This document shows, piece after piece, positions 1 through 5,573 of a stretch of 5,573 bases of DNA (its first letter is position 1; each line of letters begins with the position of its first letter). The notes beneath the pieces were generated by a model. It ran no database searches, was not told the origin of the DNA, and saw nothing but the letters and a program-made list of their open reading frames with translations. Made by a program: the position numbers and the translations under genes. Source of the stretch: a virus (lineage: Duplodnaviria > Heunggongvirae > Uroviricota > Caudoviricetes); IMG/VR virus record IMGVR_UViG_2531839128_000025; one strand, written 5' to 3'.

Positions 1-35
1 TCAGACGTATTAACGTTTGGTAATAACGTTTCCAT
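1..35 (-). CDS. 5' end of a leftward gene of unknown function (partial; body lies beyond window start); N-terminus METLLPNVNTS
   Basis: Minus-strand ATG at 35..33 preceded by a GAGGA Shine-Dalgarno (minus-strand 5'-GTTGAGGACGCGATA-ATG, 7-nt spacer). No in-frame stop between the ATG and position 1, so the ORF runs off the window. Only 11 codons are visible, so coding status cannot be judged from composition. Confidence 0.3.
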   Translation of the reverse strand, partial: METLLPNVNTS

Positions 36-617
36 TATCGCGTCCTCAACAATGAATTTTGTGATGCGGTGCCTGGTGCCTCCAGGTGACGTTAACCAGT
101 TAACAATTAACGCCGGATACAGAGAACCCACCCATAAGAACCAATACGGAGGTCAACTAGCCTTTTTAACTGTTCCGCGTGCGCTTAGCCGCATTCACCG
201 CATCACAAAATTCACTTTAAAAAGGGCGGCAGAGCAGTCACGGAGTAAAACTGATACCGCCAAACGTCACCAGAAAATTGATAACAGAGGGCGTTGCAGC
301 GGAGTTGTCACTTAAGTGTATGGTCAACCTGACAACCCGGTGCTTCATCGGGAAGACATGAACTCCCCGCCATACTTACCGCCGCGCCATTTCGCGGAGT
401 GCCACAACCGGAAGCGCACGGTCGACGAAAATTTAACGACAGGCTATCTATGAACCAGCTACCTCGCCGTGCGCTTTCGCGTTATGGTCTGACTTTTCAG
501 GGAAATATCCTTTCAGTAAACTGTCAGTTCCGGATGCTCACCCGTGTCCGGCGCACGCACTCCACCTCACCCGTGGAGAACTCCTTAATTACCAACCTTA
601 GCTTCGTTGGTTAGCTA

Positions 618-836
618 TTAACGCGGGTATGTAATCATTCTGGCAATGCTTAATGCCGCTGCTTTTTCCAGCCTGGTGATATCCTGCTCCAGAGCGGACA
701 GATTTTCAGCCTGCTTAGCCCTGGCTTCATTGGCCCATTTCAGATCCTGCGCTGCATTAATTTTCTGGCGCATCCACTCATAAAGTTCATCATCGGTATA
801 GTCTGGCGCGATGATGACGGGTTCTCGTTTCTGCAT
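618..836 (-). CDS. small early-left-operon phage protein, 72 aa, unknown function (MQKREPVIIAPDYTDDELYEWMRQKINAAQDLKWANEARAKQAENLSALEQDITRLEKAAALSIARMITYPR)
   Basis: Minus-strand ATG at 836 preceded by a near-consensus RBS (minus 5'-CACAAGGAGTCGAC-ATG; AAGGAG with 5-nt spacer). Protein is helix-like and charged, not antisense-looking. It is the C-terminal part of the 271-codon frame 618..1433. Its position left of the repressor matches where small kil-type genes sit in Rac-like prophages (recalled, not verified). Confidence 0.5.
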   Translation of the reverse strand: MQKREPVIIAPDYTDDELYEWMRQKINAAQDLKWANEARAKQAENLSALEQDITRLEKAAALSIARMITYPR

Positions 837-1433
837 GTCGACTCCTTGTGGTTCGTGTTGCCTGCTTTTAACCACATCAGGCGAGGTGGTATCCTGAAAG
901 CCGACCAAAGCTTTACGGATAAATAAGTTATGTTGCAACCACCAATAAATCCGCTTAAAAATATGAAAATTGATTACTGGTATAAAGCACTTACAGTTGT
1001 TGGTGCTGCGTTGTTTGTCTTTAATGGAACATCTTTTTTTGACAGATACCCCGTTGTTCCACTGGCTTTTTTGTCCTCCGGTATTTTCTTCACTGGCCTT
1101 GGAGAGTGGATCAATCACCCTCTCAGAGTGAGATTTATTGGTCCCGGAGCCGTTGCCCGGGGGCATAACCGTTCTCCGTGCACACTCGGCATTATCTTCG
1201 ATATATTGGGTGTCTGCCTGATTGTTACAGGAGTCGTCAAATTCTTCTGAAGAGAATCCACACACAGGGCATACAACCGGAATACGGCAAATGATTTCAC
1301 CCGGCTCGATGTGTGGGTACTCGCCATCAATTTTTTGTTGCTCCCGTATGCCCATGTTGACCTCATTTCCCCTTAACGCCGGGGTAGCGGAACAAAAACC
1401 TGCTGCATAGTTAAAGTTGAACCCTGCCGTCAT
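618..1433 (-). CDS. alternative long gene model: 271-codon open frame (the 72-aa gene would be its C-terminus); possibly two genes or a decayed gene
   Basis: Uninterrupted minus-strand frame from the ATG at 1433 (GAGG 9 nt upstream); a second in-frame ATG at 1355 has a GAGG RBS with 5-nt spacer. The N-terminal 90 aa contain a Cys cluster (CRIPVVCPVCG...DSC...ECARR). The central ~110 aa (about 836-1180) are K/N/S/I-rich and read like the antisense of the T-rich plus-strand membrane ORF. The full-length model is therefore doubtful. Confidence 0.2.
   Translation of the reverse strand: MTAGFNFNYAAGFCSATPALRGNEVNMGIREQQKIDGEYPHIEPGEIICRIPVVCPVCGFSSEEFDDSCNNQADTQYIEDNAECARRTVMPPGNGSGTNKSHSERVIDPLSKASEENTGGQKSQWNNGVSVKKRCSIKDKQRSTNNCKCFIPVINFHIFKRIYWWLQHNLFIRKALVGFQDTTSPDVVKSRQHEPQGVDMQKREPVIIAPDYTDDELYEWMRQKINAAQDLKWANEARAKQAENLSALEQDITRLEKAAALSIARMITYPR
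963..1250 (+). CDS. small hydrophobic (membrane) protein, ~95 aa, 2-3 predicted TM segments; possible superinfection-exclusion-type accessory gene
   Basis: ORF 930..1250 in the supplied track; the ATG at 963 gives MKIDYWYKALTVVGAALFVFNG...VVPLAFLSSGIFFTGLG...LGIIFDILGVCLIVTGVVKFF with clear hydrophobic segments and T-rich third codon positions. No good Shine-Dalgarno before 930 or 963. Opposite orientation to its neighbours, as for sieB in Rac and lambda (recalled, positional only). Overlaps the long minus-strand frame. Confidence 0.35.
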   Translation: MKIDYWYKALTVVGAALFVFNGTSFFDRYPVVPLAFLSSGIFFTGLGEWINHPLRVRFIGPGAVARGHNRSPCTLGIIFDILGVCLIVTGVVKFF

Positions 1434-1537
1434 GTTCTTACGCCTCGGGCTGGCTACTTAACCCCTGACCACTGCCTGGTAACTCGAAGTATTGCCCTGC
1501 ATTCTGTGGAGCGGGGTGAGTTGGTATGAAAAGAAGG

Positions 1538-1576
1538 ATACCCATAGGTATTTAAAAAGTAAATACCCATGGGTAA
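1538..1576. promoter_or_regulatory. left operator-like site pair (OL-like): two palindromes, ATACCCATAGGTAT and ATACCCATGGGTAA, 25 bp apart
   Basis: TACCCATGGGTA at 1564-1575 is a perfect 12-bp palindrome; 1539-1550 TACCCATAGGTA has one mismatch. Lies in the 184-bp gap between the repressor stop (1618) and the leftward ORF start (1433). Same core motif (ACCYRTRGGTA) recurs twice in the repressor/cro intergenic region. Confidence 0.45.
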
Positions 1577-2037: not shown

Positions 2038-2137
2038 AGGTAAATAATAGATGCGATTACTGCAAGGTAAACAACCTGTGGGTATTGACTTTTGTTTACC
2101 TGTAGGTATTCTTTGCTGTGTTTACTAAGGAGTAGCT
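2038..2137. promoter_or_regulatory. divergent promoter/operator region (OR-like) between repressor and cro-like gene
   Basis: Direct repeats AACCTGTGGGTATT (2073-2086) and TACCTGTAGGTATT (2097-2110), 24 bp apart. Inverted repeat GGTAAACAA (2066-2074) / TTGTTTACC (2092-2100). Rightward promoter candidate: -35 TTGACT (2085-2090), 16-bp spacer, -10 TATTCT (2107-2112), then RBS AAGGAG (2128-2133) and ATG at 2138. Leftward promoter candidate: -10 TATTAT with -35 TTTACC on the minus strand. Operator repeats overlap both promoters. Confidence 0.5.
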
Positions 2138-2419
2138 ATGGAAGAATTAAGAATATTTCTCAATTCTCTTTCGTCAGATGAACAGCGTATGTTTGCATGC
2201 GAGTGTGGTACCAGCATCGGTTATCTAAGAAAGGCATTGAGTAAAGGTCAAGTGTTAGGGGCATCGTTATGTGTCCTTATTGAGCGAGCCAGTAATGGTG
2301 AAGTTACACGTCAGCAACTAAGGCCTTTTGATTGGATGAATATTTGGCCCGAGCTGGAAGATACCAAAACGTTAACACAACCACTTTCTAGGAGCTTGAT
2401 TCATGAAAATCAAGCATGA
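2138..2419 (+). CDS. Cro-like HTH transcriptional regulator, YdaS family (Cro/CI-type; putative antitoxin-like partner of YdaT)
   Basis: 93-aa ORF with strong RBS (AAGGAG, 5-nt spacer). HTH-like TSIGYLRKALSKGQ and the C..IERA.NGEV....LRP.DW pattern I associate with YdaS-type Cro proteins. First gene of the rightward operon opposite the repressor. Confidence 0.8.
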   Translation: MEELRIFLNSLSSDEQRMFACECGTSIGYLRKALSKGQVLGASLCVLIERASNGEVTRQQLRPFDWMNIWPELEDTKTLTQPLSRSLIHENQA

Positions 2420-2828
2420 ACACATCCGCATGGCGATGAATGCCTGGGCGCATCCGGACGGTGAAAAAGTTCCGGCAGCTGAAATAACCAGGGCTTATTT
2501 TGAACTGGGTATGACGTTCCCAGAACTGTATGACGACAGCCATCCGGAAGCCCTGGCTCGCAATACCCAGAAAATTTACCGCTGGGTAGAGAAAGACACC
2601 CCTGATGCAGTTGAAAAAATTCAGGCGTTGTTACCAGCGATCGAAAAGGCAATGCCACCTTTGCTGGTGGCCAGAATGCGCAGCCACAGTTCAGCTTATT
2701 TTCGGGAGCTGGTGGAGACGCGGGAGCGACTGGTGAGAGACGCTGATGATTTTGTCGCAGTGGCAATCGCCGGTTTCAATCAGATGAACCGTGGTGGCCC
2801 GGCAGGAAATGCTGTGGCAGTACATTGA
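2403..2828 (+). CDS. YdaT-family protein (putative toxic/regulatory protein of the RacR-YdaS-YdaT-type module)
   Basis: 141-aa ORF; N-terminus MKIKHEHI... and C-terminus ...VAVH resemble what I recall for E. coli YdaT (unverified). RBS TAGGAG (2389-2394) 8 nt upstream of ATG. Start overlaps the end of the cro-like gene by 17 nt. Gene order repressor / cro-like / this gene / replication gene matches Rac racR-ydaS-ydaT-ydaU. Confidence 0.75.
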   Translation: MKIKHEHIRMAMNAWAHPDGEKVPAAEITRAYFELGMTFPELYDDSHPEALARNTQKIYRWVEKDTPDAVEKIQALLPAIEKAMPPLLVARMRSHSSAYFRELVETRERLVRDADDFVAVAIAGFNQMNRGGPAGNAVAVH

Positions 2829-2899: not shown

Positions 2900-3970
2900 A
2901 TGGCTAACGCTTGGCTCAGATTATGGCATGACATGCCAAATGACCCTAAGTGGCGAACAATTGCCAGGGTGTCAGGGCAGCCAATTGCAACAGTGATGGC
3001 AGTGTATATCCACCTCCTGGTGAGCGCGTCACGAAATGTCACGCGAGGTCACATTGATGTCACGACAGAAGATTTAGCAAGTGCGCTCGACGTGACAGAA
3101 GAGGTAATTGATTCAATTTTGCAGACGATGCAGGGGCGGGTACTTGATGGTGATTTAATCACTGGATGGGAAAAACGCCAGGTGCTTAAAGAGGACAACG
3201 GCAATATTTCGCAAACCGCAAAATCTCCGGCAGAGCGCAAGAGGGCGCAGCGAGAGAGGGAAAGAAAGCGGGAACAAAATGGCGATTGTCACGGCGCGTC
3301 ACGAAATGTCACGCACATGTCACGACGAGTCACGACAGATAAAGATACAGATAAAGATACAGATCAAGAAGATCAAAACACTATGGTCCATGGCGTAAAA
3401 AACGCCACGAACCAGGCAGGGGATGTTCAGACCGTCAATCCTGGTCAGCCAGCAGGCACGACACCGGAAGCCGATTCAGCGTATGCGCTGAAAGCCGATT
3501 CGGGCGCTGTGCAGCAGGTGATGACCCCAAGGCCGGAGCAATCACACCAACTGCAGCAGCCTGAAGCCGATTCCGCCATTCAGCGGGAAGCCGATCGGGT
3601 AGTCCCGGAAAACACCGGGCTGTCTGTGGGACGAGTGGATTATCCGGATGTATTCGAACAGGTCTGGCGGGAGTACCCGTTGCGTGCCGGAGCAAACCCG
3701 AAGAAATCCGCTTTCAGTGCCTGGAAGGCCAGATTACGCGAGGGGGTGCCACCAGAGGCCATGCTGGATGGCGTGAGGCGTTACGCAAGATACTTGGCGG
3801 CTACCGGGAAAACGGGAACGGAATTTGTTCAGCGAGCGACGACGTTTTTTGGACCGGACCGGAATTTTGAGAACCCCTGGTTGCTCCCGGTAAGCGGCAC
3901 GAACAACCAGCGTTGTGTGAATCATATTTCTGAACCGGATAACGAAATTCCGCCGGGCTTCAGGGGGTAA
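2900..3970 (+). CDS. phage replication initiation protein (replisome-organizer / lambda O-like initiator) carrying its own origin iterons
   Basis: ORF 2894..3970 in the track; the likely start is ATG at 2900 (GAGG at 2891-2894, 5-nt spacer), with GTG at 2894 as alternative. N-terminus ANAWLRLWHDMPNDPKWRTIARVSGQPIATVMAVYIHLL resembles phage replisome-organizer N-domains. C-terminus FEQVWREYPLRAGANPKKSAFSAWKARLREGVPPEAMLDGVRRYARYLAATGKTGTEFVQRATTFFGPDRNFENPW resembles the conserved C-terminal motif of phage DnaD/O-like initiators (recalled). Internal phased repeats plus an acidic DKDTDKDTDQEDQ linker mirror lambda ori-within-O architecture. Confidence 0.85.
   Translation: MANAWLRLWHDMPNDPKWRTIARVSGQPIATVMAVYIHLLVSASRNVTRGHIDVTTEDLASALDVTEEVIDSILQTMQGRVLDGDLITGWEKRQVLKEDNGNISQTAKSPAERKRAQRERERKREQNGDCHGASRNVTHMSRRVTTDKDTDKDTDQEDQNTMVHGVKNATNQAGDVQTVNPGQPAGTTPEADSAYALKADSGAVQQVMTPRPEQSHQLQQPEADSAIQREADRVVPENTGLSVGRVDYPDVFEQVWREYPLRAGANPKKSAFSAWKARLREGVPPEAMLDGVRRYARYLAATGKTGTEFVQRATTFFGPDRNFENPWLLPVSGTNNQRCVNHISEPDNEIPPGFRG
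3024..3064 (+). repeat. iteron-like cluster A: four GTCAC(G/A) hexamers phased at 10-11 bp inside the replication gene N-domain coding region
   Basis: GTCACG at 3028, 3038, 3059 and GTCACA at 3048; inverted copy CGTGAC at 3091-3096. The 21-mer GCGCGTCACGAAATGTCACGC (3024-3044) is repeated exactly at 3294-3314. Confidence 0.5.
3284..3380 (+). repeat. iteron cluster B plus AT-rich tandem repeat: putative replication origin within the initiator gene
   Basis: Five GTCACG hexamers at 3288, 3298, 3308, 3319, 3329 (helical-turn phasing), immediately followed by tandem 12-mers AGATAAAGATAC x2 (3337-3360) and a degenerate AGATCAAGAAGATCAAAAC. The iterons-then-AT-rich layout in the linker between N- and C-domains parallels lambda ori in gene O. 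Confidence 0.55.
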
Positions 3971-4436: not shown

Positions 4437-4463
4437 ATTAAAGGGCATTAGTTCAGATATGCA

Positions 4464-4576
4464 TTGACATTTTCATGGCACAAGGTAGAGCTAGCGTGGT
4501 TGTTCGCTTTGTGCCAAGAGTGGTCATTGATAATATTTTGGTGGGTTACATCTGTCAATGTTTCAGGTGATATGAT
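4464..4576 (+). promoter_or_regulatory. candidate promoter/operator region upstream of the AT-rich cargo ORF
   Basis: TTGACA at 4464-4469 with no good -10 at proper spacing. Extended -10 TGaTATGAT at 4568-4576 with no clear -35. 8-bp inverted repeat CATTGACA (4462-4469) / TGTCAATG (4553-4560), and a third CATTGA at 4525. Weak hairpin GGCACAA (4477-4483) / TTGTGCC (4509-4515). All read by eye; none conclusive. Confidence 0.25.
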
Positions 4577-4663
4577 ATACAAATAGCCAGACTTAGACTG
4601 GCATGCTGTTTATTTTTATATTATGGGTGTGCCACATGGATTTAAAACTTATTGAGATATGAC

Positions 4664-5573
4664 ATGGATACTTTTCATAATATTTTGCTTGAGCACATAG
4701 ACAGCCTTTTAAAAGAGAGACTTGATTTATCTGGTGACGCTGATATCGAAAAAGAAATTAATAACCTAATTCCCAAAATAGCCATTGTCGTTAAAAAATC
4801 TCTTATTGGCTCGGCCAATGCAATGCTTAGAGAACATCGTTCTCTTTGTGATGAATTTGTTGAGAGAAATATTTCAAGATGGGCAGAGGCTTTTGATTTG
4901 CTCGAAACACTTATAGTGATATGCACGGAGTCCGGTGAAGAGTTCAATCGTTCTTATAGACCACAAGCTGCCTCTGAAGAGGATGTGGTTTTTGATTTAG
5001 TCGTTCGGCATCACGCAAGAGCTTGCCACATCGCCAACGAAATTTTGTGTCTCTTAAAGAATGGATTTGCAGATGCTGCCCAAGCGAGATGGCGAGCACT
5101 TCATGAGGTAGCGGCCACAGCTATGTTTATAGCAAAGCATGGAAAAGAGTGTGCTGAGCGCTTTTACTACCATGAAGTGGTTGATTCATATACTGGAATG
5201 TTGGAACACAAAAAGTACGAGCACCGGTTAGAAGCAAAAGGTCCAACTATTGAAGAAATAGCTGAGTGTAAAGTTCAATTTGATCTATTAATAAAAAAAT
5301 ATGGCAAAAAATATGCAGATAATTATGGCTGGGCATCTTATATTTTCCCTAACCATAATAAAGTGGGGTTTGGAGCTATTGAGAAAGATGTTCAGTTAGA
5401 ACACATGCGCCCTTATTATAAGTGGGCGAGTCAGAATGTACACACCGGTTCCAAGGCAATGAGAAATAGGCTTGGTCTCTGTGAAACTGGTGATGATATA
5501 TTATTGGTCGGGCAAAGTGATTCAGGAATGGCTGATCCAGCCCATGCTACTGCTATTAGTTTGATGCAGATTA
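4664..5573 (+). CDS. AT-rich cargo ORF of unknown function, partial (303+ codons, 3' end beyond window); candidate accessory/defence gene with HEPN-like R-x4-H motif
   Basis: ATG at 4664 opens a frame with no stop to the window end (protein starts MDTFHNILLEHIDSLLKERLDLSGDADIEKEINNLIPK...). It is absent from the supplied track only because it runs off the window. Strong A/T bias in codons, unlike the replication genes upstream. Weak SD (GAGA). Contains RWRALH (R-x4-H). No family confidently recognised. Confidence 0.75.
   Translation, partial: MDTFHNILLEHIDSLLKERLDLSGDADIEKEINNLIPKIAIVVKKSLIGSANAMLREHRSLCDEFVERNISRWAEAFDLLETLIVICTESGEEFNRSYRPQAASEEDVVFDLVVRHHARACHIANEILCLLKNGFADAAQARWRALHEVAATAMFIAKHGKECAERFYYHEVVDSYTGMLEHKKYEHRLEAKGPTIEEIAECKVQFDLLIKKYGKKYADNYGWASYIFPNHNKVGFGAIEKDVQLEHMRPYYKWASQNVHTGSKAMRNRLGLCETGDDILLVGQSDSGMADPAHATAISLMQI

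Follow-up and report, generated by a model that had tools for sequence, protein, structure and literature searches.

Closest described switches and the setting of the locus

In phage lambda, the promoters PR and PRM are divergent, the operators are spaced about 24 bp apart, and OR2 is located about 42 bp upstream of the start of the leaderless cI transcript. Beyond the repressor gene, a second operator set is present at PL. Previous studies have shown experimentally that short, non-cleavable repressors follow the same logic, namely in DicA/dicBp (PMC10448788) and in PaaR2/YdaS/PL933P (PMC8630535). In the Qin prophage of E. coli K-12, operators lie between the repressor and cro genes as well as at the leftward promoter, and dicBp is repressed 22-fold by DicA, a repression that is relieved by the antirepressor Rem (PMC10448788). 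For CP-933P of E. coli O157:H7, the paaR2 mRNA was demonstrated experimentally to be leaderless, as was that of lambda cI (PMC8630535). The recognition repeat of YdaT has been defined as TTGATT-N6-AATCAA (PMC9986795).

In the present study, we analyzed a stretch of viral DNA of 5,573 nucleotides (hereafter, the window), which represents the early part of a lambdoid prophage inserted beside rspB, i.e., at the Qin position in K-12. We propose that four palindromes on the two sides of its repressor gene, together with a degenerate fifth one, probably act as operators in the lambda-type immunity switch of a Qin-like lambdoid E. coli prophage, and we give this reading, which is built on sequence comparison, a probability of roughly 0.85. 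The genes that surround the proposed switch are as follows.

2037-1618, minus strand: repressor gene, 139 aa
2138-2419, plus strand: Cro analogue, 93 aa, YdaS-like HTH (phrog_35)
2403-2828, plus strand: CII analogue, YdaT family (PF06254, 37.5 bits against a cut-off of 21; phrog_163)
1-1355, minus strand: leftward operon under PL (first ORF, ydfC, DicF, start of dicB)
starting at 1355, minus strand: first leftward ORF, CxxC-containing and Zn-ribbon-like, with only weak resemblance to the ECs_2282-type zinc-binding protein
836-618, minus strand: ydfC
275-224, minus strand: DicF sRNA (Rfam, 76.7 bits)
35-1, minus strand: start of dicB; 35-3 translates as METLLPNVNTS, against MKTLLPNVNTS in K-12

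Against YdaS_toxin (PF15943), the Cro analogue scored 25.8 bits, short of the cut-off of 30; in PGAP annotations, it is called "YdaS family HTH protein" or "transcriptional regulator". An exact YdaT site, TTGATT-N6-AATCAA, was found at 2396-2413, where it spans the ydaT start codon at the ydaS/ydaT junction. Rightward, the YdaT gene is followed by a replisome organiser and a DUF977 gene.

Compared with the dicA-dicC/dicBp switch of Qin, the window lies in the same chromosomal neighbourhood and carries a leftward operon with ydfC, dicF, and dicB, in which the ydfA-ydfB segment has been replaced. The two switches share a short repressor lacking a RecA-cleavage domain and transcribed toward the operon that it represses (in the window, by prediction), as well as operators on both sides of the repressor gene, which in the window are likewise predicted. 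In addition, BLASTP against DicA revealed 33% identity across the 46 C-terminal residues of the window repressor. In contrast, the DNA-binding domain and the operators of the window are unrelated to those of Qin, other repeats being present at K-12 dicBp; its Cro and CII are of the YdaS/YdaT type and not DicC; and it has two left sites, compared with three reported for Qin.

The PaaR2/YdaS/YdaT switch of CP-933P resembles the window in its short non-cleavable repressor, its leaderless mRNA (predicted in the window), its PRM-like promoter, its YdaS-type Cro and YdaT-type CII, and its YdaT repeat at the ydaS/ydaT junction (PMC9986795); moreover, its PL copies the PR hexamers and has OL sites of its own (PMC8630535). 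It differs in that its operators are 18-bp repeats with the consensus half GTTTAGTAA, compared with TACC-N4-GGTA in the window, that PaaR2 shares its transcript with a toxin-antitoxin pair that the window lacks, and that the leftward cargo is a different one.

The divergent PR/PRM, the spacing of about 24 bp, the position of OR2 about 42 bp upstream of a leaderless start, and the PL operator set are features in common with lambda (PMC8630535). Unlike lambda, the window has a core of 12-14 bp instead of 17 bp, an OR3 candidate 15 bp from OR2, two OL sites instead of three, only about 0.5 kb between OL and OR, and a repressor without the S24 self-cleaving domain. A lambda-like leftward early promoter had been expected from the sequence-only reading; the putative operator pair overlapping a predicted promoter agreed with this expectation, whereas the genes downstream did not, since PL would lead into the ydfC-DicF-dicB operon and not into an N gene. 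The predicted PL is the counterpart of dicBp of Qin, and a predicted repressor-controlled promoter heading an operon with ydfC, dicF, and dicB is a DicA-type feature that appears to be present in the window.

Putative operator sites and the predicted promoters that they overlap

It had been claimed that four copies of the 11-mer ACC(C/T)(A/G)T(A/G)GGTA flank the repressor gene as two pairs with a spacing of 24-25 bp, and that one copy belongs to a perfect 12-bp palindrome. All four copies were located where they had been placed, the start-to-start distance was 25 bp in the left pair and 24 bp in the right pair, and the perfect palindrome was TACCCATGGGTA at 1564-1575. The neighbouring TACCCATAGGTA at 1539-1550 was 1 base away from a perfect 12-bp palindrome. 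Because they are palindromic or nearly so, the left copies (1540 and 1565) matched the 11-mer on the minus strand too. The two pairs occupy the places of lambda-type OR and OL, and each overlaps a sigma-70-like promoter sequence in the same manner. The sites and promoters are listed below.

1539-1550: putative OL1, TACCCATAGGTA, promoter-proximal, its last two bases being the start of the PL -10; contains the 11-mer ACCCATAGGTA (1540-1550)
1564-1575: putative OL2, TACCCATGGGTA, promoter-distal, perfect palindrome abutting the PL -35; contains the 11-mer ACCCATGGGTA (1565-1575)
2059-2070: OR3 candidate, TACTGCAAGGTA, degenerate, with one good half-site, overlapping the PRM -35
2073-2084: putative OR2, AACCTGTGGGTA, ending flush against the PR -35; contains the 11-mer ACCTGTGGGTA (2074-2084)
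2097-2108: putative OR1, TACCTGTAGGTA, overlapping the PR -10 (GGTATTCT); contains the 11-mer ACCTGTAGGTA (2098-2108)
2085-2112, plus strand: PR promoter, TTGACT-16 nt-TATTCT (consensus promoter scan), with a predicted start at about 2119
2071-2044, minus strand: PRM-like promoter, TTTACC-16 nt-TATTAT (consensus promoter scan)
1535-1563, minus strand: predicted PL, with the -35 TTTACT at 1563-1558, a 17-nt spacer, and the -10 TATCCT at 1540-1535 (read from the sequence)

In the window, no match to the 11-mer (ACCYRTRGGTA) was found besides those at 1540, 1565, 2074, and 2098. Dinucleotide-preserving shuffles yielded a mean of 0.01 matches, and the observed count was reached in 0 of 200. We further searched 191 kb of E. 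coli O128:H27 strain 90-9281, which includes an identical copy of 1440-2420 and the whole prophage of about 45 kb. The 11-mer was confined to the four sites there, so the motif was not abundant at random locations across this part of the genome.

The set of four sites was confirmed but proved incomplete, as a third, degenerate right-hand site, TACTGCAAGGTA at 2059-2070, had been missed. This OR3 candidate, at a distance of 15 bp from OR2, emerged when the window was aligned to the phages mEp043 and CharmingMan, in which its counterparts are TACCTGCCGGTA and TACCTGTTGGTA, respectively. Judging from the aligned sites, the core is better written as T-TACC-N4-GGTA-A than as the 11-mer. Another OR3 candidate, TGTCCATAGGTA at 2031-2042, which has 2 mismatches and overlaps the repressor ATG, was rejected, since relatives have OR3 at about -32 and nothing over the ATG. 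The sequence TACCGCTGGGTA at 2577-2588, inside ydaT, fits TACC-N4-GGTA but not the YRYR centre, and it was left aside as probably a chance match.

On the right side, OR1, OR2, and the degenerate OR3 (2059-2108) all fell within the 100-bp repressor-cro intergenic region and overlapped the promoters called by the scan. The PRM-like -10 ends 6 nt before the repressor ATG at 2037, and a Shine-Dalgarno sequence is absent; a leaderless repressor mRNA is therefore predicted. Relative to a start at 2037, the centres of OR2 and OR1 would lie at about -41.5 and about -65.5, respectively.

On the left side, the minus strand of the pair reads TACCCATGGGTA-TTTACT-TTTTAAA-TACCTATGGG(TA)TCCT, which is the same grammar as that of PR, and the predicted start of PL is at about 1527-1528. 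The PL hexamers are weak, with 8 of 12 consensus matches, just under the threshold of the promoter scan, so PL was not called by it. The layout parallels that of PR as well as that of the PL regions in 30 or more relatives, and OL1 is placed like the second member of the downstream pair of 36 among the 49 related loci. A search of 1576-1617 revealed no third OL site.

Conservation of the sites and the repressor domain

To compare the arrangement across species, we assembled 49 loci that share the N-terminal domain of the repressor, from the Enterobacterales, Aeromonas, Neisseria, Burkholderiales, and Xanthomonadales (gamma- and beta-proteobacteria). A one-genome-per-species scan with conserved peptides provided 42 further loci, and 4 more came from protein look-ups. 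The genera in the scan included Yersinia, Edwardsiella, Klebsiella, Pantoea, Brenneria, Aeromonas, Neisseria, Paraburkholderia, Herbaspirillum, Massilia, Ralstonia, Xanthomonas, Stenotrophomonas, and others.

Locus by locus, the core ACC-N4-GGT recurred at the same distances from the repressor ATG, namely about -72, -47, and -32. A site at -90 to -25 was observed in 45 of the 49 loci (P about 3e-76 by a simple binomial expectation), and the site at about -32 was present in 26. A downstream pair with a distance of 24-27 bp was found in 36 of 49 loci (P about 6e-97, simple binomial), at distances of 0.46 to 3.9 kb from the ATG. The first site was, in most pairs, directly followed by a -35 resembling TTGAC or TTTAC, and the second was followed by a TAnnnT-like -10, directed away from the repressor gene. 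Elsewhere in the loci, the core was no commoner than expected by chance (61 occurrences in 346 kb, compared with 84 expected). The consensus from 150 sites was t-TTACC-N4-GGTA-a, with a centre biased toward Y-R-Y-R. The promoter elements were also conserved: 27 of 49 relatives had a TAnnnT hexamer 5-7 nt ahead of the repressor ATG, and TTGAYT right after OR2 was maintained across relatives. The same motif positions in 45 and 36 of the 49 loci, together with the promoter layout, support the proposal of the sequence-only reading that the two pairs represent OL and OR.

The phages mEp043 and CharmingMan are sequence relatives of the switch and not characterised references, as no published mapping of their operators was found in open-access text. 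The N-termini of their cI proteins are 65% identical to residues 1-86 of the window repressor. Both carry three TACCYRYRGGTA sites between cI and cro, spaced as in the window (OR3-15 bp-OR2-25 bp-OR1), and the region reads [TACCTGCCGGTA]AAT[AACCTATGGGTA]TTGATT...[TACCTACAGGTA] or equivalent. Both also have an OL pair. In mEp043, the two sites are 25 bp apart and precede the annotated N gene, a difference from the window, and in CharmingMan, which has no annotated N, they are 26 bp apart downstream of cI. A further difference from the window is that these repressors are 225-228 aa long with an S24 peptidase C-terminus.

Where the DNA-binding domain differed, the sites differed as well. Phage Tritos and K-12 Qin have other DNA-binding domains and homologous flanks, and different repeats occupied the position of the left pair in both. 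Homology of the window to Tritos and Qin sets in again at about 1518-1531, immediately beyond the predicted start of PL, and this boundary is the classic edge of a lambdoid immunity cassette. As far as these comparisons reach, the operator sequence is exchanged together with the DNA-binding domain of the repressor, which is the behaviour of immunity specificity.

The repressor itself is annotated as "hypothetical protein" in carrier genomes (WP_000362155.1). It matched no Pfam family, and no HTH model matched its N-terminal domain at E < 0.1; it did match PHROG 5736, "transcriptional regulator". A PDB sequence search returned only chance-level matches to Z-DNA-binding domains. The database search showed 65-82% identity between residues 1-75 and many S24-type CI repressors of 221-242 aa, which carry PF00717, whereas the 139-aa repressor does not. 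The same N-terminal domain was combined with a DicA-like tail in fewer proteins, of about 137 aa, and phage Tritos is the converse mosaic, with the same C-terminal tail and left arm and an unrelated N-terminal domain. The NCBIfam DicA model NF007257 gave 23.9 bits against a cut-off of 101 and aligned with residues 86-136 only; with this low score and a match restricted to the C-terminus, a full-length member of the DicA family was excluded.

The AlphaFold (AF2) model of the repressor had a mean pLDDT of 86 and consisted of a four-helix N-domain (3-63), a disordered linker (77-86), and two C-terminal helices (92-138). The top fold matches were the SPC32H repressor (5d50) and XRE-family HTH proteins, and they were weak, with a best E of about 1e-3 and probabilities of 0.9-1.0. 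The N-terminal domain is described here as a predicted HTH. The SPC32H Rep of a Salmonella phage (5d50/5d4z), which according to the entry title was solved in complex with an antirepressor, was the best structural match of the predicted model; the identity was just 16-24%, with partial alignments and a high rmsd, and a shared operator or antirepressor is not evidenced in the window.

The protein had been called a lambda-like repressor. This description suits its role and its logic but not its class, because it lacks the S24 peptidase domain of self-cleaving repressors and ends in a DicA-like C-terminus. Without an S24 domain, induction could not proceed by RecA-stimulated self-cleavage. Judging from the analogous DicA and PaaR2 systems, it likely takes place through an antirepressor or a bistable flip (PMC10448788, PMC8630535).

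These observations suggest how the switch may operate. The 139-aa repressor would most likely bind as a dimer, through its N-terminal HTH domain, to the T-TACC-N4-GGTA-A sites. Occupancy of OR1 and OR2 would cover the -10 and -35 of PR, and the Cro-like (YdaS-type) and CII-like (YdaT-type) genes would be turned off. From OR2, centred about 41.5 bp upstream of where the leaderless PRM transcript would start, the bound repressor would be placed to activate its own promoter, and the weak OR3 over the PRM -35 could serve negative autoregulation or repression by Cro. On the left side, OL2 and OL1 would bracket the -35 and cover the -10 of PL, and the dicF-dicB operon would thereby be repressed. With a spacing of 24-25 bp, the sites of each pair would suit two dimers that bind cooperatively. 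We infer binding, cooperativity, the activation of PRM, and the transcription starts from this arrangement. In open-access text, we found no publication describing the operator TACC-N4-GGTA or the binding specificity of mEp043 cI, and no footprint, reporter, or binding studies of the 139-aa protein or its DNA-binding-domain family.

Alternative readings and significance

The alternative that survives best concerns the left pair, which overlaps one further feature.

1529-1575, minus strand: hairpin of both left operators and their inner flanks (TTTA/TAAA), followed by UCCUUCUUUU (terminator scan)

According to this alternative, the second or even the main job of the left pair is at the RNA level, as the intrinsic terminator of the repressor mRNA, a reading that we regard as tentative. 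Such a terminator might keep PRM read-through out of the toxic dicF-dicB operon, while PL transcripts, which start beyond the hairpin, would be unaffected; this role is conceivable and rather doubtful. The minus strand from 1575 to 1539 gives a 16-bp stem and a 5-nt loop and is followed by TCCTTCTTTT in the terminator scan. It was the sole terminator-like site in 1300-2300, it begins 43 nt past the repressor stop codon, and its RNA fold is about -22 kcal/mol (z = -5.5). A hairpin arises automatically from two palindromic sites, but this stem is 4 bp longer than the 12-mers, with TTTA/TAAA replacing the T that is usual before TACC in related loci, and the OR pair forms no extended palindrome. 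The stem contains only 5 G-C pairs.

Close relatives provided further evidence on both sides. In the locus L056, whose repressor is 91% identical, the 16-bp stem is still perfect despite three substitutions at the site centres, with one double change from U-A to C-G, and a Salmonella relative, L052, has kept a 15-bp stem. The U-tract, in contrast, is weak in L056 and absent in L052, and the three supporting loci are close relatives and thus non-independent. Across the family, arm complementarity in 37 OL pairs was no higher than in OR (41% compared with 37% Watson-Crick), and a bias of G-U over C-A was not observed across related loci. Tests of arm complementarity, of G-U versus C-A, and of inner-flank pairing thus yielded no family-wide selection for a hairpin at OL, which limits the terminator idea to the lineage of the window. 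A terminator as the sole function would also leave the identical motif at OR and the conserved promoter layout unexplained. In its combined form, the 37 bases of the left pair would act as OL1/OL2 in the DNA and, with the U-rich PL start region, as the repressor terminator in the RNA that blocks leakage into dicF-dicB, and TACC-N4-GGTA with its Pfam-less domain would define a widespread, uncharacterised immunity family common to S24-type and DicA-type repressors of beta- and gamma-proteobacteria. We consider this combination somewhat unlikely as a whole.

A second alternative is that the repeats are relic operators of a cryptic prophage whose switch no longer works. The element does lie at the Qin position, strain 90-9281 carries an IS3 insertion and some pseudogenes, and the ydfA-ydfB segment of the window has been replaced. 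The immunity region itself is intact, however: every ORF of the switch is open, and the segment 1440-2420 was found, nearly identical and at at least 80% coverage, in 822 of 5,426 complete E. coli genomes (about 15%), while the whole segment was in no record of the phage collection. Moreover, DicF and DicB are toxic when derepressed (PMC10448788), so selection would keep repression working even in defective prophages. Loss of the switch is improbable on these grounds.

It is still less probable that the sites are bound only by the YdaS-type Cro-like protein or by another factor and that the 139-aa protein has a different target. In most loci, the operators are accompanied by a Cro analogue whose N-terminus is conserved (MEELR/MDKLL..LNSL; MEELR..LNSL in the window), and because the sites travel with the repressor domain and usually with the Cro analogue as well, comparison alone cannot assign a protein to a site. 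Binding of Cro would be expected under the preferred operator reading anyway, given that the footprints of YdaS and the repressor overlap in CP-933P (PMC8630535). In contrast, Klebsiella loci with the same repressor domain and without a divergent Cro-like ORF have kept the OR1-like site and the downstream pair, and this links the motif to the repressor domain and not just to Cro. The sites also keep constant distances from the repressor ATG and its -10, and the stretch REPSYVSRMLY, almost invariant in the alignment of the N-terminal domain, is a near-invariant helix that parallels the near-invariant TACC/GGTA half-sites. Finally, a chance cluster of short palindromes, for which nothing but the short motif length speaks, is already refuted by the 0.01 matches expected (0 of 200 shuffles), the absence of the motif elsewhere in 191 kb, and the conserved positions in 45 of 49 loci.

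Collectively, the operator reading describes an ordinary lambdoid OR/OL arrangement. As the switch follows textbook lambda logic, the conceptual gain is modest; it is the operator specificity and the DNA-binding domain that appear to be both widespread and uncharacterised. The operator T-TACC-N4-GGTA-A provides a testable site for a Pfam-less DNA-binding domain that is conserved from the Enterobacterales to Neisseria, the Burkholderiales, and Xanthomonas. The locus is also a clean example of domain shuffling, in which one DNA-binding domain is fused to either an S24 self-cleaving domain or a DicA-like domain. With the operator defined, immunity groups and cross-repression between co-resident prophages may be predicted.

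The repressor N-terminal domain and its fusion partners

We found that the N-terminal domain of the 139-aa repressor (1618-2037 in the window) and of loci L005-L059, which are related by this domain, followed the pattern MDKYE.RR..L..IRD...GKA..VAR.I.REPSYVSRMLYPEGKKGKKRIADDMVE.IE.SF.LPRGWMD. This domain had no Pfam model, and the protein was named "hypothetical" by PGAP. The domain was kept across beta- and gamma-proteobacteria and was fused to either an S24 peptidase domain or a DicA-like helical tail. Phage Tritos carried the same DicA-like tail as the window repressor but an unrelated DNA-binding domain. These combinations are a clear case of domain shuffling.

Variant operator layouts

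In locus L002 (mEp043), a long-spaced inverted repeat, TACCTG-N10-CAGGTA, was located at about 3565-3590, upstream of the OL pair of candidate operators, and its half-sites were the same as those of the operators. Several relatives carried a lone CAGGTAAAC half-site approximately 20 nt upstream of OL2. Either element could represent an OL3 with unusual geometry; no equivalent of either was found in the window. Within ydaT, the window contained a further operator-like match, TACCGCTGGGTA at 2577-2588, also found in strain 90-9281, which satisfied TACC-N4-GGTA but not the Y-R-Y-R centre. This match could be due to chance or could be a weak additional candidate site.

The Klebsiella loci L008, L010 and L012-L014 encoded S24-type repressors carrying the same N-terminal domain. 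These loci lacked a divergent Cro-like ORF and OR2; they retained an OR1-like site and also a pair of operators downstream, with a T-rich stretch after the pair. In these loci, the repressor may regulate on its own and not as part of a phage switch.

Repeats and genes of the rightward arm

The following features were located to the right of the repressor gene:

2396-2413, YdaT-type repeat TTGATTCATGAAAATCAA, spanning the start codon of ydaT, where the Cro-analogue gene ends
3028-3066, four GTCACG copies, period ~10-11 bp, in the replisome-organiser gene
3288-3336, five GTCACG copies, period ~10-11 bp, in the same gene
3335-3358, perfect tandem ACAGATAAAGAT x2, after the second GTCACG cluster
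4440-4680, AT-rich, non-coding, with several TTGACA-like and TATAAT-like hexamers, ahead of the DUF5677 gene
4664 to window end, DUF5677 gene, frameshifted in some related genomes

The YdaT-type repeat exactly matched TTGATT-N6-AATCAA, the recognition repeat defined for CP-933P (PMC9986795), against a chance expectation of 0.03 matches, and is a probable marker of a PRE-like control region. The GTCACG clusters and the ACAGATAAAGAT tandem look like origin iterons within an O-like gene, a placement resembling that in lambda.

The leftward arm

Segment 840-1345 replaced ydfA-ydfB of related prophages and had no match at >=80% coverage among 5,426 complete E. coli genomes. The features of this arm were as follows:

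1-35 (-), first 11 codons of dicB
224-275 (-), DicF sRNA (Rfam, 76.7 bits)
1433..618 (-), unbroken 271-aa ORF, its start weakly similar to an ECs_2282-type zinc-binding protein
930-1250 (+), 106-aa ORF within segment 840-1345, antisense within the 271-aa ORF

The 106-aa ORF had no family match, and its hydrophobic stretches suggest a putative membrane protein. Both DicF and dicB lay downstream of the predicted leftward promoter PL, an arrangement by which the repressor would gate two cell-division inhibitors.
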